A stretch of 64,000 bases of DNA from Solirubrobacterales bacterium (GTDB lineage Bacteria > Actinomycetota > Thermoleophilia > Solirubrobacterales > 70-9). The position numbers were made by a program, and so were the translations under genes. Below are positions 4,468 to 59,885 of the stretch, one piece after another (the stretch's first letter is position 1; the number at the start of each line of letters is the position of its first letter). The notes beneath the pieces were generated by a model. That model searched no databases. It saw only the letters and a list, made by a program, of their open reading frames with translations, and was not told the DNA's origin. The stretch spans positions 2,249-66,248 of the forward strand of contig JAJNAZ010000016.1 of assembly GCA_021155855.1 (NCBI GenBank), read 5' to 3'.

Positions 4468-4520
4468 GTCAGCTATCAATACCTCATGCCCCGCGAGAAC
4501 TCCTGCCCGCGCGCCAACTC

Positions 4521-6292: not shown

Positions 6293-6496
6293 GCATCACT
6301 GAGCGTTCTCCTCGTGCCTGGCTAAGACTCGGTTAAGTGTCCAGCGCCGCGCTCGCCACCGGCGTGAGCGACTAGGATGCCCGCGGGTACGAATCCCTGG
6401 GCAACAGCGCCCTTGCGGGGAGGCCAGGACGCGCATCCCCGCTGGATCGCATGGAAGCCACCAGGTAGAGAGGAGCAAGGCAAACGCCGTCCCCGC

Positions 6497-13860: not shown

Positions 13861-13863
13861 GAG

Positions 13864-37050: not shown

Positions 37051-39195
37051 CTAGCCCGTTTCCCCGCGCTCGGCGTTGAGCTCTTCGACCACGTCGAACA
37101 GGTCGCCCTGGCGGTAGAAGTCGACCGCGATCAGGTTCGCGGTCAACTGACGCAGCCGCTCGCAGCGCCGGATCCGCTTGCTGAGCGCCTCGTCCGCGTT
37201 CACCTTCTCCGCGTTCGACGGCTTCGGCTGCGGGGTGGTGTCGACCCAGTGGTTGAGCAGGAACAGCGGTCCGTCGCCGTCGCCACGGTTCTCCTCACAG
37301 CTCTCGGCGAGCCGCTTGCCGTCGGTGAGCGCGTCCGGCTTCTTGAATGTGTACGGGGTTTCCTCGACCAGGCCCTCATACGCCTCGTGGTACCAGGGGA
37401 TCGAGCCGTGACCGGCGTCGTTCTCGGCCATCATCAGCACCCGCCCGCCCGAGTCGATCATCTCTTGCAGCGTCGGCAGCGGGTCCAGTGGTCCGTCGTA
37501 TACGTAGTCGATCAGCCCCGAGCCCTCGACCGCGACGGCGATGTCGCGCGGCTTCACGTAGTCCTCGATCACGATCACCAGGACCTCGTCGCCGTTCACG
37601 GCGAGGAAGTCGCGGTACTCGCGAAAGGCGGTCTCGATCGGGATCGCGCCGAGCTCGCAGAAGCGGTGGCAGAGGTAGACCTGCCGCGGGCCGGTCGGTT
37701 TCGAGTTCACCACCCGGTCGCGGAGCCGCAGCGCCGCATCGAGCCCCTCCGGGCCGAGCGTCTTCACATATTCCGCGCGCTCTCCGCCGGCGAGTTCGGA
37801 GAGGTCGGTCTTCACCTTGCCGCTCTCGGTCGGCTGGCCGTAATGGGCGTCGATCAAGAGCCCGCGGACACCGTCCTCGAGCTGATCGACGAACCCGGCG
37901 TCCTGCTGTCCGAGCAGCCAGTCCTTGTTCGTGACCGCCGACATCGCGTTGTGGGTCGCCGGCACGGCGACCTCGTCGAGGGGGCGATCGCAGAGCTCGC
38001 GCGAGCCGTTGCAGCCCACCGTCTCGATCGCCTCGGCGGATTCGCTGGTGCCGCCGGTGGCGACGAAGATCGCGCCCCCGACGATGATCAGCCCGGATGC
38101 GATCGCCGCGGCGATCAACGTGCGACGCCCGCGGGTCATCTCCGCGGCGCGCTGCTCCTCGGTCGGCGGCGCGATCGTGATCCTGAGGATCTCCGAGACC
38201 CCGGCGTAGGCGATGTAGAGGCCGGCGAGCAGCCCGAGCAGGTGGATGAACCCGTCCGGCTGGATCACGATCAGCACGCCGACGAGGACCAGGCCAAGCG
38301 CGCGCACGACCCGGACCGAGGTTCGCTCCGGCGTCCTCGTGATCGTCTCCCAGGCGCGGCGCAATGGAGCTTCGACGTCGACCGGGCGCAGCAACGACGA
38401 GGCGGCCGCCGAGATCACCGCCCCGCAGGCGGCGAAGATGTAGAGCCCGTCGCGCAGGTCGCGCAGGTAGGCATCCCAGATCGCCTCGGCGGCGTCGCGG
38501 ACGCCGGTGTCGTCGATCCGGCCGAGGAGAACTTCCCTGATCACCCCGAGCCCGACCGCGGCGACCACGCCGCAGCCGACGACCGCGATCCCGAAGGTGA
38601 GCAGCGTGCGGCGCCGATCGCGCGAGCGCCAGAGCGCGATCGCGCCCAGGACGAGGCCGAGGGCGAGCAGGAACAGGGCGAGGCCGCCGAGGTCGTGACC
38701 GGCCTGGGCCAGGTCGGTGAGCCAACCGGGGGGCTCGATCCCGGCCACATCGACGTCGGCGCCGGCGCCGATGTCCTTCGCGACCCGTGGTGCGAGCGCC
38801 TGCAGCGCCCCCCGCAGGACGACGCCGAGGTCGGCGAGCGTCAGCGTCGCGCTGTTCTGGTTGTCCTCGAAGAGCGCGCTGTGGACATCGCGGACCGCGG
38901 TGTGAAACAGGTCTTGGAACACCCCCGCGCCGACCAGACCCTCGACCACGCCCTCGATCACGGGCCGGAACCCGACCAGGTCCGCCTGGGCGTTGAGGAC
39001 CAGATCGTCGGTCACCCGCCGCCCGATCTCGGCCTGGACCGCGTCGTCATTGAGGGCTGTCGTCGCGCGCGCCGAGAACTCGTCGGAGTCGAACAGCGTT
39101 ATCCGGGCATAACCGGTGACCAGTCCAAGGAGCAGCGCCAGTGCCGCCAGGACTGCGAGCACCGGCGCGCCCCGCACTCGCGCGCGGTCGGCCAT
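37051..39195 (-). CDS. Polytopic membrane protein with a C-terminal PI-PLC-X-like (PLC-like phosphodiesterase TIM-barrel) domain
   Basis: The N-terminal ~430 aa carries several TM helices. The C-terminal half has PATHNAMS ... QLEDGVRGLLIDAHY ... LNHWVD ... IAVDFY, which resembles the PLCXD-type catalytic His / Arg-Asp pattern. Start chosen at ATG 39195. Confidence 0.6.
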   Translation of the reverse strand: MADRARVRGAPVLAVLAALALLLGLVTGYARITLFDSDEFSARATTALNDDAVQAEIGRRVTDDLVLNAQADLVGFRPVIEGVVEGLVGAGVFQDLFHTAVRDVHSALFEDNQNSATLTLADLGVVLRGALQALAPRVAKDIGAGADVDVAGIEPPGWLTDLAQAGHDLGGLALFLLALGLVLGAIALWRSRDRRRTLLTFGIAVVGCGVVAAVGLGVIREVLLGRIDDTGVRDAAEAIWDAYLRDLRDGLYIFAACGAVISAAASSLLRPVDVEAPLRRAWETITRTPERTSVRVVRALGLVLVGVLIVIQPDGFIHLLGLLAGLYIAYAGVSEILRITIAPPTEEQRAAEMTRGRRTLIAAAIASGLIIVGGAIFVATGGTSESAEAIETVGCNGSRELCDRPLDEVAVPATHNAMSAVTNKDWLLGQQDAGFVDQLEDGVRGLLIDAHYGQPTESGKVKTDLSELAGGERAEYVKTLGPEGLDAALRLRDRVVNSKPTGPRQVYLCHRFCELGAIPIETAFREYRDFLAVNGDEVLVIVIEDYVKPRDIAVAVEGSGLIDYVYDGPLDPLPTLQEMIDSGGRVLMMAENDAGHGSIPWYHEAYEGLVEETPYTFKKPDALTDGKRLAESCEENRGDGDGPLFLLNHWVDTTPQPKPSNAEKVNADEALSKRIRRCERLRQLTANLIAVDFYRQGDLFDVVEELNAERGETG

Positions 39196-39280
39196 CGCGC
39201 GCAGCCTACCTCCGCGGGTGGTTGCTCCAACGGGCCGGCGAGCCGGCTTTCGTAGCATCGATGGCCGACTGCTCAGGTCA

Positions 39281-44807: not shown

Positions 44808-44850
44808 TGACCCCGGGGTTTGTTTCGGTATGCGGAACATTGGCCCGGGT
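44808..44850. repeat. Degenerate copy (B) of the ~43-bp hairpin element; left direct repeat flanking the DUF559 gene
   Basis: tgaccccggggtttGTTTCGgtatgCGgAACattggcccgggt aligns with 45682-45724. Shared blocks are tgaccccgg, gtttcggtatgcg, aac and ttggcc. Confidence 0.75.
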
Positions 44851-45684
44851 CCCGACGCGGCGGTGGCAGAGATCGCCGCTGACCAGCACGGCGTCATCCA
44901 CATCGTCCAGCTTCTGGCTGTCGGCCTGAGCCGCGCCGGGGTCGCGCGCCGGGCCGCGGCGGGCAGGCTGCATCCCGTCCACCACGGCGTCTACGCCGTC
45001 GGCCACCCGGGCCTCGAGCCTCGCGGCCGCTGGAAGGCGGCGACGCTCGCGCTGGGGCCCGCAGCCGTGCTCAGTCACCGCAGCGCAGCGGAGCTCTGGA
45101 GGATGCTGCCCGAGAGCGGCCACGTCCCGAACGTGACCGTCCCGGGCGGCGGCGATCGGTCACGACGGCGCGGGATCCACGCCCATCGGTCGACCTCGCT
45201 GGTCAGGGCGGAGGCGACGATGCGCGACGGGATCCCGGTGACGACCCCGGCGCGGACGCTCGCCGACCTGCGTCGCACCGCGCCGTCCGCGCTCGTCCGC
45301 AAGGCGCGGCGGGAGGCCGAGTACCTGCGCCTGCCGCTGGCGGCCGCCGATCGCGGCGACGGCACCGCGAGCGGCCTGGAACACGCCTTCCTCCGCTTGT
45401 GCCGTCGCCATCGACTACCCGAGCCCGAGGTGAATGTCCGGATCGACCGCTACACGGTCGACTTCCTCTGGCGCCCGCAACGGCTTGTGGCCGAGCTCGA
45501 TGGCTACCGCGCGCACAGCGGCTGGCAGGCATTCCAGGACGATCACATGCGCGACACCCGACTCGCCGCACGCGGCTATTACGTGCAGCGATTCAGCGAC
45601 TGGCAGATCGACAGCGAGCCGGACACGGTGATCCGGACGGTTCGCGCGCTCATCCACCGTCTCACGCCCGCCCGGGTGGTGTGA
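44830..45684 (+). CDS. DUF559 (Vsr/MutH-like endonuclease fold) domain protein
   Basis: N-terminus IAADQHGVIHIVQLLAVGLSRAGVARRAAAGRLHPVHHGVYAVG. C-terminus RIDRYTVDFLWRPQRLVAELDGYRAH...RDTRLAARGYYVQRF is the typical DUF559 core. The ATG at 44830 lies inside the repeat element; GTG 44863 is an alternative start. Confidence 0.75.
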   Translation: MRNIGPGPDAAVAEIAADQHGVIHIVQLLAVGLSRAGVARRAAAGRLHPVHHGVYAVGHPGLEPRGRWKAATLALGPAAVLSHRSAAELWRMLPESGHVPNVTVPGGGDRSRRRGIHAHRSTSLVRAEATMRDGIPVTTPARTLADLRRTAPSALVRKARREAEYLRLPLAAADRGDGTASGLEHAFLRLCRRHRLPEPEVNVRIDRYTVDFLWRPQRLVAELDGYRAHSGWQAFQDDHMRDTRLAARGYYVQRFSDWQIDSEPDTVIRTVRALIHRLTPARVV

Positions 45685-47580: not shown

Positions 47581-49860
47581 GTGAGCCCGGGGTTCAGCTT
47601 CGCGCCCGCGTCCGAGCGGGCGCTGGACGCCGGCGCCTACCTGCTCGGCTCGCTCGAGCTGGCGCTGATCGTCGGCGCGGTCGCGCTCGCCGCTTGGCGG
47701 GTGCGGGCGACGATCCTGCCGGGCTGGCGAGGCGCGCCGGCGCGGCTGGCCGAGTCGGTGCTCGCGACCGCCGCCCTGATTTGGCTCGCCGAGGCGTTGG
47801 GCACCTTCGGCGTCTATGGGGAGGCGTCGATGATCGTCGCCTGCCTCGCGCTCGCCGGGCTCTGCCTCGTCGTCTGCGGGCGACTCGACCTCCGCCGTGG
47901 GCCGGGCCCGGCCCCTACCCCGCCCGCCCCGCCGGCGGCCCGGATCGCGATCTGGCTCGCCGCCGCGGCCTGCGCCGTGGTCGCCGCCGCCTGGATGGTG
48001 CCCACGCTCGGCAGCCTCGCCGGCGGCATGGACCGCGCCGACTCGCTCTGGTACCACATGCCGCTCTCGGCCCGGTACGCCGCCGACGGCGACCTCGGCG
48101 CGATCGACTACTTCGACCCGATCTTCTTCGCCTCTTACTACCCGGCGAATTCGGAGGTCCTGCACTCGGTGCCGCTGCTCGGCTACGGGCGCGACATCCT
48201 CTCGCCGCTGCTCAACCTCGGCTTCCTCGCCCTCGGCCTGCTCGCCGCCTACTGCATCGGCCGTCCCTACGGCCTCGGCCCGCAGAGCCTGATCGGCGGC
48301 GCGATTGCCCTCGGCGCCCAGATGCTGATCGAGTTCCAGGCCGGCGAGGCGCTCAACGACATCGTCGGCGTCGCGTTCGTGCTCGCGGCGGTGGCGGTTC
48401 TGGTCAATGAAGGGGCGGCGAGGGCGTCGCGGGCCCTCTCGGGCGCGGAGGCAGTTGGTCGATTTTCGCGTCTCAGGGACGCAAGATTCGCCCGACCATC
48501 GCTCGGGGCGCCGGCTCTTGCGGTCGCCGGGATCGCCGCGGGCCTCGCGGCGGGGACGAAGCTCTCGTTCCTGGCCCCCGTAATCGCCCTGTTCGTGGCC
48601 CTGATCGTGATCGCGGGGCGCGGGGCGCGGCTGCGGACCGGGGCGGTGTTCGGGATCGCCGCCTTCGCCGCAGGTGGCTACTGGTTCGTGCGCAACCTGG
48701 TCGCGGTCGGAAACCCGATCCCCTACACCGGCTTCGGGCCGCTCGGCCTGCCGGCGCCCGAGCGCGCCTTCGAGCTGCGGCCCGGCAACTCGGTCTTTCA
48801 CTACTGGAACGACACCGAGGTCTGGTCGGACTGGTTCTTCCCCGGGCTCGAGGAGTCGTTCGGCGTCCTCTGGCCGCTGACGATCGCCGCCTTCCTCGGC
48901 GCCGGCGTGTACGCGCTCTGGCGCGGCTCGGAGCCGCTCGTGCGGGCGCTCGGGGCGGTGGTCCTGTTCACGGCGATCGCCTACGTCTTCACCCCGCTCA
49001 CCGCCGCCGGCGAGGAGGGCATGCCGATCGCCTTCGAATGGAACGTCCGCTACATCGCGCCCGCGGCCGCCGTCGGCCTGGCGCTGCTCCCCTGCCTGCC
49101 GATCGCGCGTGCCGGCGAGCGCGCCCGGCGCCTCACCCTGGCCGGGCTCTGCGTCCTGTTCGCGGCCACCACGGTCTCGCTCGTGCAGTGGCAGCAGGGA
49201 CACGTCAAGGGCGCCGTCGCGGCCGGGATCGGGGTGCTGGTCGGCTTCGCGCTCATCCGCTGGCTGCTCGACCGCGGCCTGATCGGCCCCGGCGCACCGC
49301 GGGGGTGGGCGGTCGCGGTCGCCGGCGTGGTCGCGATCGGCGCGCTGGGCGCCGGCTGGTGGGAGCAGAACCACTATCTCGAGCGCCGCTACGAGAAGCT
49401 GAGCCCGCAGCTGCGGCTCGCCGACGCGGCTCGCTGGAGCCGCGACCTGCGCGACGCGAAGGTCGCCGTGAGCGGTGTCCGCGGCGTCTTCAACCAGTAT
49501 CCGTTCTATGGCACCGACCTCTCCAACGAGGTCCAGTGGCTGGGCGAGGAGGGCCCCGACGGCGCCTTCCTACGGATCGCCGACTGCGCCTCCTGGCGCC
49601 GGGCGCTGGCCGACGGCGGCTACACCCATGTCGTCACCACCTATGACCCGTTTTTGCCCGGCCGGCTCACCGACACCAAGGAGGGGTTGTGGACGCGCGA
49701 CGACCCGGCCGCGCGCGAGATCCTTCGCGACGGACCAGTGAGCGTGTTCGAGCTCGAGGGCCCGCCCGACCCGGACGCCTGCGGCGATCTCCCCGACCTC
49801 AGCCCGGCGGAGCTCAACGGCGACTCGGTCAACGCCGAGCCGACCGCCAATCAACCCTGA
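47581..49860 (+). CDS. Large polytopic membrane protein, GT-C-fold glycosyltransferase-like (PMT/ArnT-like), with a soluble C-terminal domain
   Basis: 759 aa with more than 12 hydrophobic segments. The first-loop acidic/His motif is MDRADSLWYH. The C-terminal ~170 aa is hydrophilic. GGAGG lies 7 nt before GTG 47581. The family assignment comes from architecture only. Confidence 0.55.
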   Translation: MSPGFSFAPASERALDAGAYLLGSLELALIVGAVALAAWRVRATILPGWRGAPARLAESVLATAALIWLAEALGTFGVYGEASMIVACLALAGLCLVVCGRLDLRRGPGPAPTPPAPPAARIAIWLAAAACAVVAAAWMVPTLGSLAGGMDRADSLWYHMPLSARYAADGDLGAIDYFDPIFFASYYPANSEVLHSVPLLGYGRDILSPLLNLGFLALGLLAAYCIGRPYGLGPQSLIGGAIALGAQMLIEFQAGEALNDIVGVAFVLAAVAVLVNEGAARASRALSGAEAVGRFSRLRDARFARPSLGAPALAVAGIAAGLAAGTKLSFLAPVIALFVALIVIAGRGARLRTGAVFGIAAFAAGGYWFVRNLVAVGNPIPYTGFGPLGLPAPERAFELRPGNSVFHYWNDTEVWSDWFFPGLEESFGVLWPLTIAAFLGAGVYALWRGSEPLVRALGAVVLFTAIAYVFTPLTAAGEEGMPIAFEWNVRYIAPAAAVGLALLPCLPIARAGERARRLTLAGLCVLFAATTVSLVQWQQGHVKGAVAAGIGVLVGFALIRWLLDRGLIGPGAPRGWAVAVAGVVAIGALGAGWWEQNHYLERRYEKLSPQLRLADAARWSRDLRDAKVAVSGVRGVFNQYPFYGTDLSNEVQWLGEEGPDGAFLRIADCASWRRALADGGYTHVVTTYDPFLPGRLTDTKEGLWTRDDPAAREILRDGPVSVFELEGPPDPDACGDLPDLSPAELNGDSVNAEPTANQP

Positions 49861-49867
49861 ACCGACC

Positions 49868-52270
49868 GTGCTCGAGATCTACGCCTCCACAGCCCTGATC
49901 CTCGCCGCCTCGCTGCTGCTCGGCCGCGCGATCCTCGGGCTCTTGGGCTGGGACGGAGCCCACCCGCCCGCCGGCGACGGCGCCGTACGGCCCCCCGGCT
50001 CACCCGCGTGGCTCTCGGGCGCCATCGGGTTCGCGGCCCTGGTCGTGGTCGCTCCCTTCCTCGTCCGCCTGCCCGGCCGCGGGACCACCGCGGCGATCGT
50101 CATCGGCGCGCTCTGCGTGCTCGCCGCGGTGTCGATCGCGCGCGAGCGGCGCGATCGCGAGCGCGGGAGCGAGTGGCTCGTCGGCGTCGCCGCCGCCGCG
50201 ATCGTCGTCGGCCTGGCGACGCTTCCGTTCCTGTTCAACGAGCGGGTCGGCGTCCTCGGCGAGGGCATCTACACCAACGACCACGCGGCCCAGCTCTACT
50301 GGGCCGACTGGCTGCGCGACGCGCTCGGCCCCGAGCCGAGCGCGGTCCAGTTCGGCTATCCGATCGGCCCCCAGGCGGTGGCCGTGATCGCCGCCGAGGT
50401 GACTGGCACCTCAATGGTCAGCGCCTTCAACGGGCTGCTCCTGGCGATCCCGGCGCTGACCTCGCTCGCCGCCCTGGGTGCGCTCGGCGGCTTGCCACCG
50501 CTGCGCCGGATCGCCGTCGCGGCGATCTGCGGGCTGCCCTACCTCGCCGCCTCCTTCCTCGCCCAGAGCGCCTTCAAGGAGACCGCGATGGCGCTCTTCG
50601 TGCTCGCCTTCGCGATCGCGCTCGCCGGCCTGCCCGCGGCCCCGAAACGGGCCGTGGCCGGGATCGGCTTGATTCTCGCCGCCGCCAGCGTGTTCACCTT
50701 CTCGCTCCCGGGGCTCGCCTGGTTCGCGATCTCGGTGCCGATCTGGCTTGCGCTCGAGGCGCTCGCGGGCCGCAGCCCGGTCGACTGGGGCGCCGCCCGC
50801 GAGGCGCTCTCCCAGCACCGGCTCGCGACCGCGATCGGCGCCCTGGTCGTGATCGCGGTCGCCGTGGTCGCGATCGGCCCGGCGACCAGCTTCGTCGAGA
50901 AGGTCGACGACGTCCAGTTCTCGGCCGGGCGCCTGAGCTCGCCCGTGTCCTGGGGTGAGGCGTTCGGGATCTGGCCCGAGGGCGACTTCCGCATCGTCCG
51001 CACCGAGGTCGCCGGGTCGCCGCTGGCGCTCGCGCTCGGCGCGCTCGCGCTCGGCTTCGGCGCCTTCGCGCTCCTGCGCGGGCGACGGTTCGCGCTGCTG
51101 GCGATGCTCGTCACCGGGGCGATCGTCTACCTCGGCGCCCGCCTCGTCGCCGAGATCCACGTCGAGGCGAAGGCGCTCGCGGTGATCGCCCCCCTCGCTC
51201 TGCTGGTGGCCCTCCACCCGCTCCTCGCCGCTCCCACGAGCACCGAGCACCGAGCAACCACCATCGCCCGCTACGCATTCGGCACCCTGTTCCTCGCCGC
51301 CGCGATCATCTCCACCCTGCTCGCCCTCCGCGCGGCGCCGGTCGGCTTCGACGACCGCCAGGCCGGGCTCGAGGTGCTCGCCGAGCGGATCGAGGGCGAG
51401 CCGGTCGTCTTCCTCGGCGTCGACCGCTTCTCCGCCCACCACCTGCGCGACACCCTGATGCGCGCCCCGGCGGGCTACGTGCCCGAGGAGATCGAATCGC
51501 GGCCCGAGAAGCGCTGGCAGCAGGGCGATGCGGTCGACTTCGACAGCCTCGAGCCGGGCAAGCTGGACAAGTTCCGCTACGCGATCACCACCGACGCCGC
51601 CTACGCCTCGACCCCACCCTCGAACTTCGAGCCGTTGGTGCGCTCGGCCGACTACGTGCTCTGGGAGCGCCGCGGCGAGACGCCGCGCAGCCGCGTGGTC
51701 GAGGGCGAGGACGGCGAGATCGGGGCGCTGCTCGATTGCGCCGGCCGCCTGGGTCGGCGTGACGGGACGGCCACGGTGATCGACGGGACCGAGCGCGTGT
51801 CGTTCACGGACTGGCAGCTCCCCGGCCGGGTGGAGGACGCCGCCGCCGGCCAGGAGCGTGCCTTCGCCGCGCCCGGCGACGCCTCGGTGCAGATCCATCT
51901 CTCCAAGGCCAGGCCGTATGAGCTCTCACTCCAATACCACTCCCAGGTTCCCCTCAAGGTACTCGTCGACGGCGACCCGGTCGCGGAGTTGCCGCCGTCG
52001 CTCGACGGGATGTACCTCGACGGCGCGGGGCGCGGCGCCTTCTGGCCGGCCGGAACCGTTGACCGCGACCAGCCCGGCTTGATCGAGGTCGTTGTGCGCG
52101 CCGCCGAACCGAGCGGCCTGCAGCGGGCAGTGGGGGTCGAGCGAAGGGTGTGGCTCGGGGACATCGCCGCCACCCCGAGCACGCGGCCCGTGGTCGACGT
52201 GGTGCTCGCGCGAGCCTGCGTCCAGTACGTCGACCACTTCACCCTCGATCGCCGCGGGGAGAACCGATGA
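49868..52270 (+). CDS. Large polytopic membrane protein, GT-C-like/polymerase-like, with a ~300-aa soluble C-terminal domain
   Basis: 800 aa with about 12-14 hydrophobic segments and the loop motif GIYTNDHAAQLYWADW. The C-terminal third is hydrophilic and looks beta-rich. GTG start 8 nt after the previous stop. Confidence 0.5.
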   Translation: MLEIYASTALILAASLLLGRAILGLLGWDGAHPPAGDGAVRPPGSPAWLSGAIGFAALVVVAPFLVRLPGRGTTAAIVIGALCVLAAVSIARERRDRERGSEWLVGVAAAAIVVGLATLPFLFNERVGVLGEGIYTNDHAAQLYWADWLRDALGPEPSAVQFGYPIGPQAVAVIAAEVTGTSMVSAFNGLLLAIPALTSLAALGALGGLPPLRRIAVAAICGLPYLAASFLAQSAFKETAMALFVLAFAIALAGLPAAPKRAVAGIGLILAAASVFTFSLPGLAWFAISVPIWLALEALAGRSPVDWGAAREALSQHRLATAIGALVVIAVAVVAIGPATSFVEKVDDVQFSAGRLSSPVSWGEAFGIWPEGDFRIVRTEVAGSPLALALGALALGFGAFALLRGRRFALLAMLVTGAIVYLGARLVAEIHVEAKALAVIAPLALLVALHPLLAAPTSTEHRATTIARYAFGTLFLAAAIISTLLALRAAPVGFDDRQAGLEVLAERIEGEPVVFLGVDRFSAHHLRDTLMRAPAGYVPEEIESRPEKRWQQGDAVDFDSLEPGKLDKFRYAITTDAAYASTPPSNFEPLVRSADYVLWERRGETPRSRVVEGEDGEIGALLDCAGRLGRRDGTATVIDGTERVSFTDWQLPGRVEDAAAGQERAFAAPGDASVQIHLSKARPYELSLQYHSQVPLKVLVDGDPVAELPPSLDGMYLDGAGRGAFWPAGTVDRDQPGLIEVVVRAAEPSGLQRAVGVERRVWLGDIAATPSTRPVVDVVLARACVQYVDHFTLDRRGENR

Positions 52271-53283
52271 AGGAGTTTCCGAGCCCCGCCGAGGCGCCAT
52301 CGCCCGTGCTCGGTGGAGGCGAGATCGACCGGGCCCCGGAGGTCCCCGGGATCGTCTTCATCGGCGGCACCGGTCGCAGCGGCACCCACGTGCTCGCGCA
52401 GCTGCTCTCCCGCCATGCGCGGTTCGGACTCGTCCCGGTCGAGGTCCGCTTCCACACCGATCCCGAGGGCTTTCCGGGGCTGCTCGCCGGCGAGGTGACG
52501 CCGCAGCAGTTCGTCAGGCGCCTGCGCGGCTTCTGGTGGCGCGGCTTTCAGACCAGCCGCATGCGCGGCATGTACCGGTTCGTCGATCGCGAGCGCTTCG
52601 AGGCCGCGGTCGGGCGCTTCGAGGCCGACCACGGCGACGACCTCGAGCGCGCCTGCCGCAACCTGTTCTTCGACCTGCTTTGGTTTCGCGCCACCGAGGG
52701 CGAGAAGGCCGAGGAGGGTGAGGCGCTGATCGAGCAGAGCACCGACAACATCGCCGCGGCGCCGACCCTCGCCCGCCTATTTGGAGAGGCGCGCTTCATC
52801 CACGTCGTCCGCGACGGCCGCGACGCCTCCGCCTCGCGGGTCGCGCAGACGCGCGGTCTGATCCGGCCGCGCACCCGGGCTCAGGGGATCGAGTGGTGGG
52901 AGGAGCGGATGCGCGCGATCGAATCCGGCGCCGAGGCGGTCCCGCCCGCGCGGCTGCTGACGATGAGCCTCGACGAGCTGTTGCTGATGCCGCGTGCGCG
53001 CGCCGCCCTGCGGCCGATGTTCCGCTTCCTCGGCGTGCCGGTGACCAAGCGCACCCGCCGCTACTTCCGCAACCGGATGACCACCGAGGAGGCCAACGTC
53101 GCCCGCTGGCGGCGCGGGATCTCGGCGCGCAAGGCGGAGCGGATCGAGGCGCTCTATGAGGCCGCGCTGGAGCGGCTCGAGGCCGACGGCGCCCGCGGGG
53201 CGCCGCTTCTGCGGCGCAGCTTCGAGCGCCGCGGCGGCCCGGTCGAGCCGCTGGTCTACGTCTACGATCGAGGGTCGCGATGA
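52267..53283 (+). CDS. Sulfotransferase family protein (Sulfotransfer_3-like), paralog 1
   Basis: PAPS 5'-phosphosulfate loop IVFIGGTGRSGTHVLAQLL and 3'-phosphate motif FIHVVRDGRDASASRV. ATGA overlap with the upstream gene. Confidence 0.75.
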   Translation: MKEFPSPAEAPSPVLGGGEIDRAPEVPGIVFIGGTGRSGTHVLAQLLSRHARFGLVPVEVRFHTDPEGFPGLLAGEVTPQQFVRRLRGFWWRGFQTSRMRGMYRFVDRERFEAAVGRFEADHGDDLERACRNLFFDLLWFRATEGEKAEEGEALIEQSTDNIAAAPTLARLFGEARFIHVVRDGRDASASRVAQTRGLIRPRTRAQGIEWWEERMRAIESGAEAVPPARLLTMSLDELLLMPRARAALRPMFRFLGVPVTKRTRRYFRNRMTTEEANVARWRRGISARKAERIEALYEAALERLEADGARGAPLLRRSFERRGGPVEPLVYVYDRGSR

Positions 53284-54257
53284 GCGCGTCAACCGAGAGC
53301 CCCGCGGACCTCGTCTTCGTCGGCGGCACGGGCCGCAGCGGCACCCACATCGTCTCCTACCTGCTCGACCGCCACTCGCGCTTTCACGGCGTGCCGATCG
53401 AGTGCCGCTTCCACTGCAACCCGAAGGGCCTCGCCGACCTCGTCCAGGGGCGCACCGATCCGGATGACTTCCTGCGCAAGCTGCGCGGCTACTGGTGGCA
53501 TCGGGTGCGGATCGGCGAGCGCGCCTACGTGAAGGCGAGGTGGCGCGCGCTCGGGCGCGGCCGGGTGCGCGGCCTGCACACGATCGTCGACCGCGAGGCC
53601 TTCGCCGCCGCCGCCGACCGCTTCGAGCGCACCCACGGCGACGACCTGCTCGCCGCCTCGCGGACGCTCTTCTACGACCTGCTCGGACCGCTCGCCGAGC
53701 GGGCCGGCAAGCCCGTCCTGGTCGAGATGAGCTGCTTCACGATCGCCGCCGCCGACGGGCTCGCGCGGATCTTCCCCGAGGCGCGCTTCGTGCACTCGGT
53801 CCGCGACGGCCGCGACTCCGGCTCCTCGAAGGTGTCGCTGCGCCAGAAGCCGCACCACCCGATCGATGTCAGCTCGGGGATCGAGTTCTGGGCCGACCGG
53901 CTGCGCCAGGCCGAGCGGGGGGTGCGGGGGATGGAGGCCGCCGACCGCGAGCGTCTGCGGGTGATCAGCCTCGACGAGCTGGTCTGGAGCGATCGCGACC
54001 GCGCCTACGCCGAGCTCTGCGAGTTCCTCGGGGTCGCCGACGAGCCCGCGATGCGAGCGTTCTTCGACGCCGAGATGAGCGCCGACGCCGCCCACCGCGA
54101 GCGCTGGCGCAAGGGGCTCACGGACGCCGAGCAGGCGGAGATCGTGCGTCTCTACGAGGCGGCGCTGGAGCGGCTCGAGGGCGAGGATTACCACTGCGCG
54201 CCGGTGCTGCGCCGCTCGTATGAGCGCGAGCGGGCGATGGCGGCGCACGAGGCTTGA
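53280..54257 (+). CDS. Sulfotransferase family protein (Sulfotransfer_3-like), paralog 2
   Basis: LVFVGGTGRSGTHIVSYLL and FVHSVRDGRDSGSSKV. Colinear with paralog 1 (RKLRGYWWHRV versus RRLRGFWWRGF). ATGA overlap. Confidence 0.75.
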   Translation: MSASTESPADLVFVGGTGRSGTHIVSYLLDRHSRFHGVPIECRFHCNPKGLADLVQGRTDPDDFLRKLRGYWWHRVRIGERAYVKARWRALGRGRVRGLHTIVDREAFAAAADRFERTHGDDLLAASRTLFYDLLGPLAERAGKPVLVEMSCFTIAAADGLARIFPEARFVHSVRDGRDSGSSKVSLRQKPHHPIDVSSGIEFWADRLRQAERGVRGMEAADRERLRVISLDELVWSDRDRAYAELCEFLGVADEPAMRAFFDAEMSADAAHRERWRKGLTDAEQAEIVRLYEAALERLEGEDYHCAPVLRRSYERERAMAAHEA

Positions 54258-55891
54258 GCGCCCGCGGCGCGGCGACCCGCGCGCCCGGCCGCATCCTGTT
54301 CACGACCTCGAACGGCACCGGGCTCGGTCACCTGACCCGGTCGATGGCGATCGCGCGCCGGCTCGGGTCCGAGCTCGAGCCGCTCTTCCTCACCCTCTCG
54401 GCGGCGGCGCCGGTGGTCCGCGAGATGGGCTTTCCGGTCGAGTACGTCGCCTCCTACGCGACCCCGGGATCGGGCAACGACTATCGCTGGTCGCGTCGCC
54501 TGCGGGCCCGCCTGCGGGCGGTGATCGCCGAGGCCGAACCGGCGGTGATCGTCTTCGACGGCACCCATCCCTACGAGGCGCTGCTCGGCGCCCTGCCGCC
54601 GTCGGCGGTCGCGGTCTGGTGCCGGCGCCCGCTCTGGAAGGCGGGCTCGAGCCGCGTGCCCCTGGGCCGCGCCGGGGCCTTCGACGCGGTGCTCGAGCCG
54701 GGCGAGCTGGCGGAGTCCGAGGATCGCGGGCCGACGGTGGCGCTGCGCGACCGCGCCCACCGGGTCGAGCCGATCGTGCTCTTGGACCGCGCCGAGCTGC
54801 TGCCGCGGGCCGAGGCCGAGGCGGAGCTCGGGCTCGAGCCGGGGCGCACCAACGTGCTCGTCTCCCTCGGCCAAGGGGCGGAGGTGCGCGAGGCGACCCG
54901 GCGCTGCCTGCGCCGGCTCGCCGGCCGCGACGACGTCCAGGTCGCGGCGCTTTCCTCCACGATCGCCGCCGCCGAGCCATCCAATGGCGACTTAGTCGCG
55001 CATGGCGCGACAAACCCGCCAACCCTCGGCGAACGCGCGGCCGGTCTCGTCGACCTGAGGGCCACCTATCCCATGAGCCGCTACTTCAATGCCTTCGACG
55101 CCGCCGTCGCTGCTGCCGGCTACAACGCCTTCCACGAGCTGATCGCGCTCGGCGTCCCCGCGCTCTACGTGCCGATCCACCGCGAGACCGACGACCAGGA
55201 GGGTCGGGCTCGCCACGCCGAACGCGCCGGCGTCGGGCTCGCCATCGAGGGGCCCGCGGACCCGCGGCTCGAGGCACAGCTCGACCGGCTGCTCGAACCC
55301 GGCGAGCGCGACGCGATCGCGACCCGGCTCGCCGCCCTGCCCGCGCCGAGCGGCGCCGCCGAGGCGGCCCGCTGGCTCACCGAGCTCGCGGCGGCGGCCA
55401 CGGCGCCCGCCCCCGCGGGCGCGAGCGTCGACTCAGGTGCCGGAGAGGGAAGCCAGTCGACGCTCGGTGCCGGCAACAGGCGGGCCGGCTCGGCGCGGGA
55501 GTTTCGACGCCGCTGGGGGCAGTTCTTCGCCAGCGCTCCCCGGACCGTGGTCCGGCTCACGCGCCAGCAGCTGACCCAGCCGCGGGTGCGGACGGTGGTG
55601 CTCGCGGTCGGGATCGCCGATGAGGAGATCGCCGCCGCGGTGCGCGCCGCGATCGCCGAGGCGGGCGAGGATCCCGAGCGCACTTTGGTGGTCACCGACT
55701 CGCTCGCGCTTGCGCCGCTGCGCGAGCTCGGGGTCGGGGTCGAGCACGTCCCGGCGCGCGGCGAGCGCCAGCCGCGGCTCGCCGGCGGCCCGTACGAGGG
55801 CTTCCTCCGCGGCCGTCTGGAGCTGATCCTCGCCGAGCGTGCCAAGCCGCGGCGGGTGGTCGTGGCGCCGGGAGGGGCTCCGCTACCCTGA
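54254..55891 (+). CDS. GT-B glycosyltransferase (GT28/MurG-C-like) with a ~170-aa C-terminal extension
   Basis: N-terminus RILFTTSNGTGLGHLTRSMAIARRL. C-terminal donor-binding region FDAAVAAAGYNAFHELIALGVPALYVPIHRETDDQEGRARHAERAGVG. TTG start overlapping the previous stop. Confidence 0.7.
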   Translation: MSARGAATRAPGRILFTTSNGTGLGHLTRSMAIARRLGSELEPLFLTLSAAAPVVREMGFPVEYVASYATPGSGNDYRWSRRLRARLRAVIAEAEPAVIVFDGTHPYEALLGALPPSAVAVWCRRPLWKAGSSRVPLGRAGAFDAVLEPGELAESEDRGPTVALRDRAHRVEPIVLLDRAELLPRAEAEAELGLEPGRTNVLVSLGQGAEVREATRRCLRRLAGRDDVQVAALSSTIAAAEPSNGDLVAHGATNPPTLGERAAGLVDLRATYPMSRYFNAFDAAVAAAGYNAFHELIALGVPALYVPIHRETDDQEGRARHAERAGVGLAIEGPADPRLEAQLDRLLEPGERDAIATRLAALPAPSGAAEAARWLTELAAAATAPAPAGASVDSGAGEGSQSTLGAGNRRAGSAREFRRRWGQFFASAPRTVVRLTRQQLTQPRVRTVVLAVGIADEEIAAAVRAAIAEAGEDPERTLVVTDSLALAPLRELGVGVEHVPARGERQPRLAGGPYEGFLRGRLELILAERAKPRRVVVAPGGAPLP

Positions 55892-55901
55892 GGGCGCGTC
55901 G

Positions 55902-56819
55902 ATGGAGGCCTCCACACCCGTAAAGCCGCTCGGCGAAGCGGCGCCGGGCGACGACCAGCGCGCCGCTGCCGCCCCCGCGCCCGGGGCGCTGCCGAACCTG
56001 ATCGTGATCGGGGCGCAGAAGTGCGGGACCAGCGTCCTGCACTACTACCTCAGCCTCCATCCCGAGGTCTCGATGTCGAAGCCCAAGGAGCTCAACTTCT
56101 TCATCGAGGAGCGGAACTGGCCGCGGGGCCTGGACTGGTATCGCGGCCACTTCGATCCCGAGGCCCGTGTGCGCGGCGAGGCCTCGCCCAACTACTCCGC
56201 CTTCCCTCAGCACCAGGGCGTCCCCGAGCGCATGCACTCGGTGGTTCCCGACGCGAAGCTGATCTACATGATCCGCGACCCGCTCGAGCGGATCGCCGCG
56301 CACTGGGTCCACAACTACGCCAAGCGCCGCGAGAAGGGGACCCTCGCGGAGACGCTCACCCACCCGAACACCTCCTACGTCAACCGCTCCAAGTACGCGA
56401 TGCAGCTCGAGCGCTTTCTCGCCTTCTATCCGCGCGAGCGGGTGCTGGTCTTCCAGCAGTCCGAGCTGCGCCACCAGCGCATGGAGACGCTGCGCCGGAT
56501 CTTCGATTTCATCGGCGTCGACCCGGACTTCACCCATCCGCGGTTCGAGCAGGAGCGCCACCAGACCTCGCGCAAGACCCGTGCGACCCGGCTCGCGATG
56601 CGGTTGGAGAAGCTCGGGCGTTCGAGCCGCGCCCGGCTGCTGCCGTCGAGCTTCTGGCTCGTGCTCGACGACCGCCTGCCGCTGCGACGGACGATCAAGC
56701 GCCCCGACGTGCGCGCCTCGCTGCCCCCAGAGACGCTCGCCGAGCTGCGCGCCGACGGCGAGCGGCTGCGCGAGCTCACCGGACGCGACTTCTCCAACTG
56801 GACGATCTGGGACGGCTAG
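55902..56819 (+). CDS. Sulfotransferase (Sulfotransfer_1-like, carbohydrate/heparan-type)
   Basis: 5'-PSB loop PNLIVIGAQKCGTSVLHYYL and 3'-PB LIYMIRDPLERIAAHW. A different family from the two upstream sulfotransferases. Confidence 0.8.
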   Translation: MEASTPVKPLGEAAPGDDQRAAAAPAPGALPNLIVIGAQKCGTSVLHYYLSLHPEVSMSKPKELNFFIEERNWPRGLDWYRGHFDPEARVRGEASPNYSAFPQHQGVPERMHSVVPDAKLIYMIRDPLERIAAHWVHNYAKRREKGTLAETLTHPNTSYVNRSKYAMQLERFLAFYPRERVLVFQQSELRHQRMETLRRIFDFIGVDPDFTHPRFEQERHQTSRKTRATRLAMRLEKLGRSSRARLLPSSFWLVLDDRLPLRRTIKRPDVRASLPPETLAELRADGERLRELTGRDFSNWTIWDG

Positions 56820-56862
56820 CTCCGCGGCTCGGCCGCGGCCCGCTCTAGGCTCGGTGGCGGCC

Positions 56863-58869
56863 ATGCCCAAGCGACGGCGACAAGAGCAGCAGCACGACCA
56901 CCCCGGCGGCTCCGGGGCGATCCTCGGCGTGCGGGTGCTGCGCTACTCCGGCGTCCAGGGGACGACGCTGGTGCTCAGCAACCTGATCCAGCTCGTCTCG
57001 GTGATGGTGGTCGCCGCCTACCTCGGGCCGAGCGAGATGGGTCGCTTCGCCCTGCTTTTGTTCCTCGCCGGGCTGGTCACCCAGCTGCTCTCGCTGCTGG
57101 TGAAGCCGGGGACGATCCGGCGCACCTTCGGCGGCGGCGACGACGAGGACGACGAGGACGAGGACGACGAGGCGGTCTCGAGCACGCCGCAGCGCACGCT
57201 TGGCACCGGGCTCGCCTGGGCGGCGGCGCTGGGGGCGCTCGGCACCGCCGTGGTGGTGATCCTGCGCGAGCCGATCGCCGAGCTTCTCCTCGGCGATCCC
57301 GACGACGGCATCCTGGTCGTCTGGGCCGCCGTCCTGGCCGGCTTCTGGCTCGTGTTCAAGCTCGCCGACATCGTGCTCTGGCTCGAGCGCCGCCCGGGCG
57401 CCTTCGTCGTCTCGGACACGACCCGCCCGGTGCTCGGCCTCGCCGCGCTCGTCGCCCTGCTCTCCGCCGGCGCCGGCCTCGAGGGCGCGATCGCCGCGAC
57501 CGCGATCGGCACCGCCGTCGCCGCGGTGGTCGCGGTGGTCCTGCTGCTGGGCAGCTTCGAGCCCTCGTTCGACTTCGGCGAGATTCGCCAGATCATCGTC
57601 AGGGGCGGCCACCGGGCGCCGATCGTGAGCTCGTTCTGGATCGTCCAGAACGCCGACGTGTTCATCCTCTCGCGGATCGTCAGCGACACCGACCTCGGCA
57701 TCTACGCGCTCGCCTCGCGCCTCGGCTTCGTCGTCTCCTTCCTCCCCCAGGGCTTCCGCGTCGCGATGCGCCCGCTGCGCAAGTCGGCGGCCTTCAAGGC
57801 GGTCGGCGACCAGTACGGCAGGAGCACCGTCCAGGGCCAGCTGCTTGGCTACTTCGCGGTGCTCTGCATCTTCGCCGTCCTGGCGATGGTGCTCGGCGGC
57901 AAGGTGCTGGTCGACATCGCCCCGTCCTCTTACGCCGACGCCGCCGGGCTGATCCCGTTCACCGCGGCCGCGTTCGTGATGCCGTCGATATACCGGACCG
58001 TGAACCAGAACGTCAATCTCTCCCACAAGCGGGCGCTGTTCATCGCCGGCTGCGTCGGCGCGGCGCTCGCCTTCATCGGCCTGACGGTGGTGCTCGCGCC
58101 CGAGATCGGCACCTACGCGGCCCCGATCGGGATGCTGGTCGGCTTCGGCATCCCCTCGCTGCTGATGTTCGCCCGCAACCAGACCGGCGCCAAGCCGATC
58201 GATTTCCCCTACCGCGCGGTCGGCGTCGCGCTGCTGCTCGCCGCGGCGATCGCGGCCGGCTTCCAGCTGCTCGAGCTGAGCGCGCTGGTCGAGCTCGTGC
58301 TCGCGGTCGTGCTGCTCGGCCTGTTCCTGGTCGCCCTCGTCCCTCTGGGCGTGATCCCCCGCTACCACCGCGGCCCGCTGCTGCACACGGTGCGCTCGCT
58401 GGGGCGCGGCACCCCGGCGAACTTCCGGGCCCGCCGCGGGCTGCGGGCGCTGGAGCCGGGTGAGCGCGAGGAGCTGCGGATCGCGGTGATCGCCGGGCTG
58501 CCGGCGGTGCGCCTCGCCCCGGAGGCGGGGGAGGGGTTGCGGCTGGTCGGCTTTCTGCGCCGGGTCGGCGAGCGCGGCGGGATCCCGGTCGGCCGGCCCT
58601 CGGCGCTCGACGCCGAGCTCGCGGTGTACCTGTTCGAGGACACGGCCCAGGCGGTACGCGACGCGAGCATGCGCCGGCTGCTCTCGGCGGGCGCCGAATC
58701 GAACGACCTGCGGGCGCTCGAGGACCTGGTCACCTACCTGGCGCGGGTTCCCGACGACGGCTGGGAGGGCCGGCCCGCGGCCGAGCGCGGGACCACCTTG
58801 CCCGGGGTCGAGCGGCGCCGCCGCGCGCAACGTCGGCGGGCCCTGCGCCGGGCGCAGGGACGCCGCTAG
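56863..58869 (+). CDS. Polysaccharide biosynthesis protein / Wzx-like flippase (MOP superfamily) with a cytoplasmic C-terminal extension
   Basis: About 12-14 TM segments with an N-terminal region typical of oligosaccharide flippases (LSNLIQLVSVMVVAAYLGPSEMGRFALLLFLAG). An unusual DDEDDEDEDDE insert follows TM2. A ~170-aa Arg-rich soluble tail is present. Start is ATG 56863. Confidence 0.65.
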   Translation: MPKRRRQEQQHDHPGGSGAILGVRVLRYSGVQGTTLVLSNLIQLVSVMVVAAYLGPSEMGRFALLLFLAGLVTQLLSLLVKPGTIRRTFGGGDDEDDEDEDDEAVSSTPQRTLGTGLAWAAALGALGTAVVVILREPIAELLLGDPDDGILVVWAAVLAGFWLVFKLADIVLWLERRPGAFVVSDTTRPVLGLAALVALLSAGAGLEGAIAATAIGTAVAAVVAVVLLLGSFEPSFDFGEIRQIIVRGGHRAPIVSSFWIVQNADVFILSRIVSDTDLGIYALASRLGFVVSFLPQGFRVAMRPLRKSAAFKAVGDQYGRSTVQGQLLGYFAVLCIFAVLAMVLGGKVLVDIAPSSYADAAGLIPFTAAAFVMPSIYRTVNQNVNLSHKRALFIAGCVGAALAFIGLTVVLAPEIGTYAAPIGMLVGFGIPSLLMFARNQTGAKPIDFPYRAVGVALLLAAAIAAGFQLLELSALVELVLAVVLLGLFLVALVPLGVIPRYHRGPLLHTVRSLGRGTPANFRARRGLRALEPGEREELRIAVIAGLPAVRLAPEAGEGLRLVGFLRRVGERGGIPVGRPSALDAELAVYLFEDTAQAVRDASMRRLLSAGAESNDLRALEDLVTYLARVPDDGWEGRPAAERGTTLPGVERRRRAQRRRALRRAQGRR

Positions 58870-58917: not shown

Positions 58918-59481
58918 CTACTCGGATTCTGAGCGCCTGATCACGATTCGGTCGGGCTCGATCGTGACCTCGACCCGGCGCTTGCCGGCCCAGTGCTCGG
59001 AGTAGACGGGGTCGTCCTTGACCGCCGGGTCGAGCCAGAGCCCGTACCCCTCCTCGTCACCGTGGTCGAAGGTGGCCTGCATCGCGGCGCCGGCACGGCC
59101 GCTGCGCCCCCGGCCCCCACGGCGGCGTCGCCGGCGGCGGCGCGGCCGGCCACCGTCGCCGTCATCGCCCGCGTCCTCGTCGGTCGAGCCCTCCTCCGGC
59201 GCCGCGCCGACGGCGGTTTCCTCGTCCTCGTCCTCAACCTCGGCCTCCGCTTCGGCGGCCAGCTCTTCCTCCCGAGCCGCGGCCTCGATCTCCGCCTCGA
59301 TCTCGTCGCGGAGGTCGACCTCGGCGGCGTCGTCGTCCTCGGCGTCGAGCTCGTGGCGGCGCCGGAACTCGCGCAGCTCGTTGGTGGAAACCTCCAGTTG
59401 ATGCGCGATCCAGGCGTCGGTGCGCCCCTGGCGGACCCAGGCGCGTATCTGATTCAGCTGTGAGCGAAGTGGTTTGGCCAT
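58918..59481 (-). CDS. Hypothetical protein: N-terminal HTH-like segment, long acidic linker, poly-Arg tract, conserved-looking C-terminal domain
   Basis: MAKPLRSQLNQIRAWVRQGRTDAWIAHQLEVSTNELREFRRRH, then a Glu/Asp/Ala-rich stretch, GRPRRRRRRRRGGRGRSGR, then ATFDHGDEEGYGLWLDPAVKDDPVYSEHWAGKRRVEVTIEPDRIVIRR. No family recognised. Confidence 0.5.
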   Translation of the reverse strand: MAKPLRSQLNQIRAWVRQGRTDAWIAHQLEVSTNELREFRRRHELDAEDDDAAEVDLRDEIEAEIEAAAREEELAAEAEAEVEDEDEETAVGAAPEEGSTDEDAGDDGDGGRPRRRRRRRRGGRGRSGRAGAAMQATFDHGDEEGYGLWLDPAVKDDPVYSEHWAGKRRVEVTIEPDRIVIRRSESE

Positions 59482-59651
59482 CCGCGGTCGGGCGATTCCC
59501 GGTCGAGCGGGCGATACTAGCCAACGGGGTGAACGGACCCCGGGCACTGCACCCCCGTGGCCGCCGAACGGCTACCCTCCGCGTACGCCGAAAACACGGG
59601 TGAGGGTCACCGGGGGATGGCTACTCGGCCGCAGTCTCGAATGGAGGCGAG

Positions 59652-59885
59652 GTGCTGGTCCTGACGCGCAAAACCAACCAGAGCATCATGATCGGCGACG
59701 ATGTCGAGGTCTCGGTGCTCGCGGTATCCAGGGACAAGATCCGGCTCGGAATCACCGCGCCGCGCGACATCCCTGTGTTCCGCAAGGAGGTCTACCTCTC
59801 GATCAAGGGGGAGGAGGGAGGCGAAAACGACGACGTGTCGGAGACCGCCTCCGAAGCGCTGCACGGATCGAGGAAGGGCGAGTAG
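59652..59885 (+). CDS. csrA: Carbon storage regulator CsrA (RNA-binding translational regulator)
   Basis: MLVLTRKTNQSIMIGDDVEVSVLAVSRDKIRLGITAPRDIPVFRKEVY is near-consensus CsrA (compare Bacillus [48 protein letters not shown]). GTG start with GGAGG 7 nt upstream. Confidence 0.9.
   Translation: MLVLTRKTNQSIMIGDDVEVSVLAVSRDKIRLGITAPRDIPVFRKEVYLSIKGEEGGENDDVSETASEALHGSRKGE

Follow-up and report, generated by a model that had tools for sequence, protein, structure and literature searches.

Three sulfotransferases, two GT-C-fold membrane proteins and a Wzx-like flippase in a conserved Solirubrobacterales locus: a candidate pathway for a sulfated envelope glycan

To our knowledge, sulfated glycans are regarded as rare in bacteria outside cyanobacteria. 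P-loop sulfotransferases of the type using 3'-phosphoadenosine 5'-phosphosulfate (PAPS) include NodH, LpsS and the mycobacterial Stf0-3, which act on envelope or signal glycoconjugates (lipo-oligosaccharides, lipopolysaccharide, trehalose or menaquinone); we know of none whose gene shares an operon with those of GT-C enzymes and a flippase. The synechan locus xss of Synechocystis 6803 encodes two sulfotransferases, eight glycosyltransferases (GTs) and Wzx/Wzy/PCP proteins (PMC8205485). The putative wps-1 locus of Actinoplanes missouriensis, with an unverified product, contains two sulfotransferase families, which are required for sporangium formation (PMC13390465). In the archaeon Halobacterium salinarum, a lipid-linked glycan is sulfated, flipped and then transferred by a GT-C enzyme (Agl25-29, Agl30/Agl31 and AglB; PMC11980604), and the Citrobacter PPPRS-MATE-GT136 three-component system, which founded family GT136, pairs a flippase of the MOP superfamily with a GT-C enzyme bearing a carbohydrate-binding module (CBM; PMC11127046). 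Here, we describe a locus of seven genes, g1 to g7, located at positions 47581-58869 of a 64,000-nt stretch of DNA (hereafter the window) from a Solirubrobacterales metagenome-assembled genome (MAG). Like xss and wps-1, this locus brings sulfotransferases of different families together in a glycan cluster with a Wzx-type flippase, here a putative one. On balance, we lean towards reading the seven genes as one operon that produces a sulfated glycoconjugate of the cell envelope. This glycoconjugate would be sulfated in the cytoplasm, flipped across the membrane and transferred outside by GT-C enzymes.

An earlier sequence-only reading of this stretch had described seven tightly packed genes on one strand. 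An open reading frame listing combined with a filter on GC content at third codon positions (GC3) recovered all seven on the plus strand with exactly the same coordinates and with coding-type GC3 values of 0.88-0.95. Two metagenome contigs carry the same locus, and JGI gene calls on these contigs gave identical boundaries for the seven genes; g4 is 100% identical between the contigs and the window, and the shared genes are at least 99% identical. In addition, g2 is 100% identical to the protein K0R88_1874. Three junctions overlap (ATGA at 52267 and 53280, TTGA at 54254) and the remaining spacers measure 7, 10 and 43 nt. The overlaps and the two longer gaps had been given correctly, and the first gap, previously given as 8 nt, is corrected here to 7 nt. 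The start codon of g1 is GTG, with a GGAGG sequence 8 nt upstream. A scan for promoters and terminators returned nothing usable in this 72% GC DNA.

The conservation of the locus was assessed by scanning one genome per GTDB species, followed by tblastn searches with all window proteins. A total of 62 loci were found, in MAGs labelled Solirubrobacterales, Actinomycetota, Actinomycetes or "uncultured bacterium". The gene order, which the sequence-only reading had proposed to follow in related genomes, is kept in about 50 loci from species-level MAGs: mazG-eno-divIC-g1-g2-g3-g4-g5-g6-g7, followed by a convergent small gene, d1 (type A). Eight more divergent genomes (loci L027, L034, L036, L040, L054, L056, L061 and L065), with a g1 53-60% identical, have a different arrangement (type B). 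They keep divIC-g1-g2, followed by one or two sulfotransferases that belong to another Sulfotransfer_3 subfamily (Pfam E-values of 1e-36 to 1e-42) and share just 25-30% identity with g4. The type-B gene set lies at about 14.5-22 kb in each locus. It further encodes a LicD-methyltransferase fusion, two long proteins of the GT2 type (490-735 aa) and, in some of the loci, a sulfotransferase like g6; neither a MurG-like GT-B nor a MOP flippase was detected within 10 kb. Complete genomes are among the carriers, for example chromosome OY968768.1 for type A and OY970347.1 for type B.

Among the 60 loci extending at least 1.5 kb beyond g2, the first 4 kb after g2 always include a sulfotransferase gene, which in 54 loci lies no more than 400 bp away. 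Several of the six loci above 400 bp are long-read MAGs in which frameshifts break the hits, and one (L047) has lost both g3 and g4. Because the genomes are related, the 60 loci do not represent 60 independent events. Nevertheless, adjacency in 54 of 60 loci and its occurrence in two locus types argue for tight coupling rather than chance. As the association persists even though the sulfotransferase subfamily was replaced between the two types, gene order and content provide evidence of a functional coupling between the GT-C pair and the sulfotransferases. A horizontally acquired island was also considered and ruled out: GC content stays at 70-75% throughout the window without a break at the locus, and about 60 genomes have the locus in the same place, after mazG-eno-divIC. 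It is instead a core locus, passed on vertically within one clade.

We next consider the predicted enzymes, beginning with the sulfotransferases. Three had been proposed, from two families, and this held in family searches with hidden Markov models (HMMs). The soluble proteins encoded by g3 (52267-53283, +; 338 aa) and g4 (53280-54257, +; 325 aa) matched Sulfotransfer_3 with 70 bits (E = 4e-19) and 59.8 bits (E = 6e-16), respectively, for a Pfam gathering cut-off of 27. They are paralogues sharing 45% identity, and both resemble tyrosylprotein sulfotransferases (TPSTs). The soluble 305-aa product of g6 (55902-56819, +) matched Sulfotransfer_1 (62.3 bits, E = 6e-17, gathering cut-off 22) and resembles heparan-sulfate 3-O-sulfotransferases and the N-sulfotransferase domain of NDST. 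Its PDB matches comprise a bacterial sulfotransferase (3rnl, 2e-20), 3-OST-1 (1e-19), heparan-sulfate 3-O-sulfotransferases generally (1e-19 to 3e-15) and NDST (7.6e-14 to 8.2e-13).

All the PAPS-binding motifs previously noted in these three genes were located. In g3, the 5'-phosphosulfate-binding (5'-PSB) motif GGTGRSGTH starts at residue 33 (nt 52363-52389) and the 3'-phosphate-binding (3'-PB) motif VRDGRD at residue 181 (nt 52807-52824). The same motifs start at residues 15 (nt 53322-53348) and 174 (nt 53799-53816) of g4, while g6 carries GAQKCGTS at residue 37 (nt 56010-56033) and IRDPLERIAAHW at residue 124 (nt 56271-56306). The 5'-PSB P-loops are invariant or nearly so (at least 90% of sequences) among 29 g3, 38 g4 and 43 g6 orthologues, which are otherwise 50-89% identical. 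The 3'-phosphate-binding motif VRDGRDASASRV is invariant in g3 orthologues and has an equivalent in g4. In g6, RDPLER is conserved and the usual Ser is replaced by Ala in the window copy, in a column that is 70-90% conserved. Putative catalytic Glu residues of g6 (in KELNFF) and of g3/g4 (in PVEVRF and PIECRF) presumably align with those of 3-OST-1 and TPST2. Judging from family models and motifs, g3, g4 and g6 are predicted to be PAPS-type sulfotransferases, and their PAPS-binding motifs appear to be under purifying selection. Since no hydrophobic segment was found in g3, g4, g5 or g6, these four proteins are predicted to be cytoplasmic.

The first two genes, g1 (47581-49860, +) and g2 (49868-52270, +), encode membrane proteins of 759 aa and 800 aa with about 16 and about 14 predicted transmembrane helices, respectively. 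Neither gave a Pfam or NCBIfam match, whether searched as single proteins, as fragments or with 18 g1 and 21 g2 homologues at E = 5, and neither matched PDB sequences using phmmer with single sequences or hmmsearch with profiles. The hypothesis that g1 and g2 are paralogues of each other was rejected, as no relation was detectable (hhalign probability 0.9%). AlphaFold (AF2) models built from orthologue alignments were of medium confidence, with pLDDT 71 and pTM 0.77 for g1, and pLDDT 74 and pTM 0.76 for g2. Foldseek comparison of these models with the PDB returned, as significant hits for the membrane proteins, GT-C enzymes exclusively, with a probability of 1.00, E-values down to 1e-6 and TM-scores of 0.34-0.44. 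The top hits were AftA, yeast STT3, AglB, ALG9, EmbB and AftB for g1, and AftD (1e-6), EmbA/EmbB, AftA and PglB for g2. The proposal of two large GT-C-like membrane proteins therefore agrees with the predicted folds. The further description of these proteins as "polymerase/ligase-like" goes beyond the models, their likeness to arabinofuranosyltransferases and oligosaccharyltransferases being seen at the fold level only.

The topology of both proteins was derived from the model helices and from charge counts in the loops; Arg-rich loops alternate regularly in both, in a positive-inside pattern. In the typical GT-C enzyme, the first external loop opens with the catalytic Asp, one external loop is flexible and accessory domains lie outside the membrane (PMC11127046). 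In g1, the first long loop predicted outside contains the invariant motif GGMDRADxLWYHMP, in which D154 of GGMDRAD is invariant and D151 nearly so. The corresponding loop of g2 contains the invariant motif GEGIYTNDHAAQLYW, with D138 invariant within GIYTNDH. A long flexible, low-confidence loop and the C-terminal domains are also predicted outside in both proteins. The C-terminal domain of g1 is an extracytoplasmic alpha/beta domain (residues ~600-759); that of g2 (residues ~490-800) ends in a CBM-like beta-sandwich, and the C-terminus of g2 also hit CBM6-type and other beta-sandwich carbohydrate-binding modules in Foldseek. Each of the two domains has one invariant Cys pair. The predicted topology of g1 and g2 thus matches the GT-C layout, and catalysis by the loop Asp is putative.

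The fifth gene, g5 (54254-55891, +), had been read as a GT-B transferase, and the searches bear this out. Its soluble 545-aa product matched Glyco_tran_28_C with 25.8 bits (Pfam cut-off 22), and a profile of 16 orthologues had MurG (3s2u, E = 4e-4) as its best PDB match. The N-terminal motif SNGTGLGHLTRS is invariant among orthologues, and the protein carries a conserved C-terminal extension of ~130 aa. Identity with the housekeeping peptidoglycan gene murG was ruled out: the score against the MurG equivalog TIGR01133 (29.8 bits) is far under the cut-off of 250 and, as the Glyco_tran_28_C domain is shared, g5 is a GT28, MurG-like protein and not MurG itself. The last gene, g7 (56863-58869, +), encodes a 668-aa protein. 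Residues 36-493 contain about 11-13 hydrophobic segments; the protein also has an acidic loop and, at its C-terminus, a conserved soluble extension of ~170 aa. It is a putative Wzx-like transporter of the PST family in the MOP superfamily, as the sequence-only reading had suggested. The window copy is borderline (23-23.5 bits against Polysacc_synt_3, cut-off 23), yet 14 of 16 orthologues matched both Polysacc_synt and Polysacc_synt_3, with a best E-value of 1e-8. The other housekeeping candidate, MurJ, was ruled out for g7, which gave no MurJ match. PDB searches with the single g5 and g7 sequences were uninformative.

Taken together, these predictions suggest the following pathway. An enzyme encoded elsewhere would prime a polyprenyl-phosphate carrier with a first sugar, which g5 would extend at the cytoplasmic face. 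The lipid-linked sugar would then be sulfated at up to three positions by g3, g4 and g6; the chemistry of this step is putative, and its location is set by the fact that PAPS is confined to the cytoplasm. The sulfated lipid-linked intermediate may then be flipped by g7. GT-C enzymes work at the outer face of the membrane with polyprenyl-phosphate-linked donors, and g1 and g2 would take the sulfated unit off its lipid carrier and attach it to an external acceptor, perhaps acting as a pair like EmbA-EmbB, with the CBM-like C-terminal domain of g2 holding the acceptor glycan. Carrier, sugar and acceptor are inferred, as are the number of sulfates and the sequence in which the steps occur. Cytoplasmic sulfation followed by flipping and transfer outside, the sequence previously proposed, fits the soluble g3-g6 proteins, the GT-C loops predicted outside and the conserved gene linkage, with the product likewise conjectural; it alone gives all seven genes a coherent role.

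An anionic glycan anchored in the wall or membrane is the probable product, as a standard part of the clade's envelope and not an accessory capsule. LicD-type enzymes typically decorate teichoic-acid-like polymers, and the LicD fusion of the type-B loci, the fixed site by divIC and the presence of the locus in every member found suggest a standard anionic glycan over a variable capsule. A more specific version of the proposal is that g1 and g2 move pre-sulfated sugars from a polyprenyl-phosphate carrier to the wall, yielding a phosphate-free, sulfate-based anionic polymer that would be a functional counterpart of teichoic acids. We put this forward tentatively, as somewhat improbable in this precise form. 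If true, an entire uncultured clade of Solirubrobacterales would have a sulfate-based wall polymer as a regular part of its envelope, and g1 and g2 would be the first bacterial GT-C enzymes using sulfated lipid-linked donors.

Several observations weigh against a sulfated envelope glycoconjugate made by all seven genes. Parts of the expected pathway are absent: the window contains no cysC/N/D genes for PAPS synthesis and no priming phosphoglycosyltransferase, and neither the window nor the type-A loci contain a polyprenyl-phosphate sugar synthase (GtrB-like GT2 or PPPRS). The locus has a single cytoplasmic glycosyltransferase, g5. The sequence-only reading had already listed the primer and PAPS genes as missing, and rightly; it had also listed nucleotide-sugar genes, of which the window does hold one, the housekeeping glmU (26239-27660). 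No match to a Wzy polymerase, PCP/Wzz or initiating phosphoglycosyltransferase was found among the seven proteins or their neighbours. GT2 genes do occur in the type-B loci and near distant g2 relatives. The assignments themselves are also open to objection, as g1 and g2 have no sequence-level membership in any GT-C family and were assigned through models of medium confidence (pLDDT 71-74) whose TM-scores are modest (0.34-0.44). Among solved structures, g3 is nearest to protein tyrosine sulfotransferases, with weak E-values, so that a non-sugar acceptor is conceivable, and the window copy of g7 scores 24.6 bits against Polysacc_synt, under the gathering cut-off of 28.2. Finally, all locus carriers are MAGs, and distant gene clusters containing g2 relatives lack sulfotransferases and also lack g1.

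The alternative that survives best divides the locus into two loosely coupled halves. Here, g1 and g2 would polymerise a neutral glycan outside the cell, in an Emb/Aft-like manner, using polyprenyl-monophosphate sugars from an unlinked synthase, and the sulfotransferase/GT-B/MOP module would make a sulfated glycolipid or lipid-linked primer serving as an anchor, an acceptor or a separate product. In structure, g1 and g2 do come closest to mycobacterial arabinofuranosyltransferases, which use decaprenyl-phosphate monosaccharide donors; distant g2 relatives adjoin GtrB-size GT2s, an epimerase and an ABC transporter in clusters free of sulfotransferases; and the GT28 family of g5 is generally known to include glycolipid synthases. 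We nevertheless find this alternative unlikely, given that g2 has a sulfotransferase gene as its immediate downstream neighbour in 54 of 60 loci and in two locus types that are not orthologous, and that the type-A loci are without a polyprenyl-phosphate sugar synthase.

Protein glycosylation, in which g1 and/or g2 would act as oligosaccharyltransferases placing a sulfated oligosaccharide onto an S-layer protein, pilin or flagellin, appears more doubtful still. The significant fold matches do include STT3, AglB and PglB, and the haloarchaeal pathway sets a precedent for sulfotransferases working with a flippase and a GT-C transferase (PMC11980604). Against this, the STT3/PglB family HMM gave no hit to g1 or g2, and no WWDYG-type motif is conserved in either protein, the sole WWE (g1 residue 593) lying outside conserved columns. 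The CBM-like domain of g2 also suggests a glycan rather than a protein acceptor. That the sulfotransferases act instead on a non-glycan substrate (protein or peptide tyrosine, or a small molecule) and adjoin the glycan genes through shared regulation only is very improbable: the nearest solved g3 relatives are tyrosylprotein sulfotransferases, and the VRDGRD and RSGT motifs of g3/g4 are ones that we take to be TPST-like, but g6 is clearly of the carbohydrate (heparan-sulfate) type, the locus contains no precursor peptide, peptide exporter or small-molecule biosynthetic genes, the conserved g2-g3-g4-g5 translational coupling speaks for one common pathway, and the association of g1-g2 with sulfotransferases survives subfamily replacement.

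The g2 family extends far beyond this clade: a library of clusters at 50% identity yielded 1909 representatives of it at E <= 1e-3, of which 554 reached E <= 1e-30. Distant relatives with 31-35% identity (P0241-P0390; loci L066 and L068) are found in other glycan clusters, together with GT2s of GtrB size, GT4s, methyltransferases, an epimerase and an ABC transporter. As these clusters are free of sulfotransferases, the g2 family looks like a general extracytoplasmic glycan transferase family that has been coupled to sulfation in this clade. The searches also expose two large GT-C-fold families without Pfam, NCBIfam or PDB-sequence match. One 1247-aa protein from a public assembly, P0220, was examined as a possible g2-sulfotransferase Rosetta-stone fusion and rejected as an assembly frameshift artefact, since its junction retains the full g3 N-terminus, including the Met, and is flanked by out-of-frame read-through. 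In several long-read MAG loci, such as L020, L049, L052 and L064, these genes are fragmented in much the same way.

The locus lies in a housekeeping environment. Upstream are mfd, a gene for a SurA-like peptidyl-prolyl isomerase, mazG, a DUF559 gene, eno and divIC/ftsB; downstream are a conserved gene on the opposite strand, a CsrA homologue, a nuclease, a GCS2 ligase and a rhomboid gene. The conserved opposite-strand neighbour d1 (58918-59484, -), convergent with g7 and beside it in nearly all type-A loci, encodes 187 aa with no Pfam hit. The nearly invariant N-terminus, MAKPLRSQLNQIRAWVRQGRTDAWIAHQLE, precedes a long acidic stretch, a run of Arg residues and a C-terminal domain that is also conserved. 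The protein may regulate the operon or bind nucleic acid in connection with it, and its membership of the system is uncertain. Just past the locus, the CsrA homologue (59688-59885, +; 65 aa, Pfam 5e-15) was also called on the JGI contigs. Between mazG and eno, the DUF559/AbiEi_4 gene (44830-45684, +) is found, among the related loci, only in the window genome, L004 and L010, while L001 has its 3' end on a contig starting inside the gene; this restriction to a few loci marks it as a recent insertion into an otherwise fixed order.

Other genes of the window are of note in their own right. A 735-aa predicted membrane protein (37051-39258, -), divergent from mfd, has a large soluble C-terminal domain and no significant Pfam match. 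The 502-aa protein encoded at 22175-23683 (+) has a DedA/VTT domain and a PAP2 phosphatase domain joined in one chain. It could be a combined flip-and-dephosphorylate enzyme for polyprenyl-phosphate recycling, of relevance to lipid-carrier pathways. A run of five MlaD-domain proteins (6377-15405, +) forms a Mce-type lipid transport operon, and an LCP (LytR_cpsA_psr) family protein is encoded nearby (3418-4701, -).

If the proposed sulfated glycoconjugate is made, an abundant uncultured soil lineage would produce a sulfated envelope glycan as an inherited core trait. Along this route, the glycan would be sulfated before it is exported, and GT-C enzymes would finish the product. The only actinobacterial precedent for sulfated glycans is the 2026 genetic hint from Actinoplanes. 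Should the product replace phosphate-rich teichoic acids, this would bear on the phosphorus economy and cation binding of soil actinobacteria. The seven genes also represent a compact set for the heterologous production of defined sulfated glycans. In the literature searched, we found no paper reporting sulfotransferases and GT-C enzymes in one locus, and none on Solirubrobacterales sulfotransferases.

Comparison with the described systems shows what is shared and what differs. As in xss and wps-1, cytoplasmic sulfation of a lipid-linked unit is presumed, and wps-1 shares with the locus an actinobacterial origin and a sulfotransferase of the heparan-sulfate type. Unlike both, the locus has no Wzy, PCP/Wzz, OPX or initiating transferase, encodes one cytoplasmic GT instead of many, contains two GT-C-fold proteins that are absent from xss and wps-1, and occupies a fixed housekeeping site by divIC rather than a plasmid or accessory island. 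The sequence-only reading, which had held such loci to be rare, is dated in this respect, as xss and wps-1 already pair sulfotransferases with Wzx; none of the known analogues combines all the parts.

The haloarchaeal AglB pathway is alike in its polyprenol phosphate carrier, sulfation by two different sulfotransferases, flipping and GT-C transfer. It differs in being archaeal, in having STT3/AglB signature motifs that g1 and g2 lack, and in its protein acceptor, where g2 carries a CBM-like domain instead. With the mycobacterial EmbA/B/C, AftA and AftD proteins, g1 and g2 share a core of multiple transmembrane helices, a conserved acidic first outside loop and extracytoplasmic C-terminal carbohydrate-binding domains. 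They are encoded side by side, as are EmbA and EmbB, a paralog-like pair that acts as a dimer. They show no detectable sequence homology to the Emb/Aft proteins, are not detectably related to each other and have no genes of the decaprenylphosphoryl-arabinose (DPA) pathway nearby; mycobacterial arabinan is, as far as we know, not sulfated. In the three-component systems (GtrA/B/C and that of Citrobacter), a lipid-linked donor is likewise made inside, flipped and used outside by a GT-C enzyme; some of their GT-C enzymes have a C-terminal CBM, comparable to the CBM-like domain of g2, and the Citrobacter flippase belongs to the MOP superfamily, the putative affiliation of g7. The type-A loci depart from these systems in having a MurG-like GT-B as sole cytoplasmic GT in place of a GtrB-like GT2 or PPPRS, two GT-C proteins instead of one, and three sulfotransferases, which occur in no described system of this kind. 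Since the locus falls outside each of the systems compared, we judge the combination of its parts to be new and the route to be one not previously described in bacteria, built from steps that each have a precedent.

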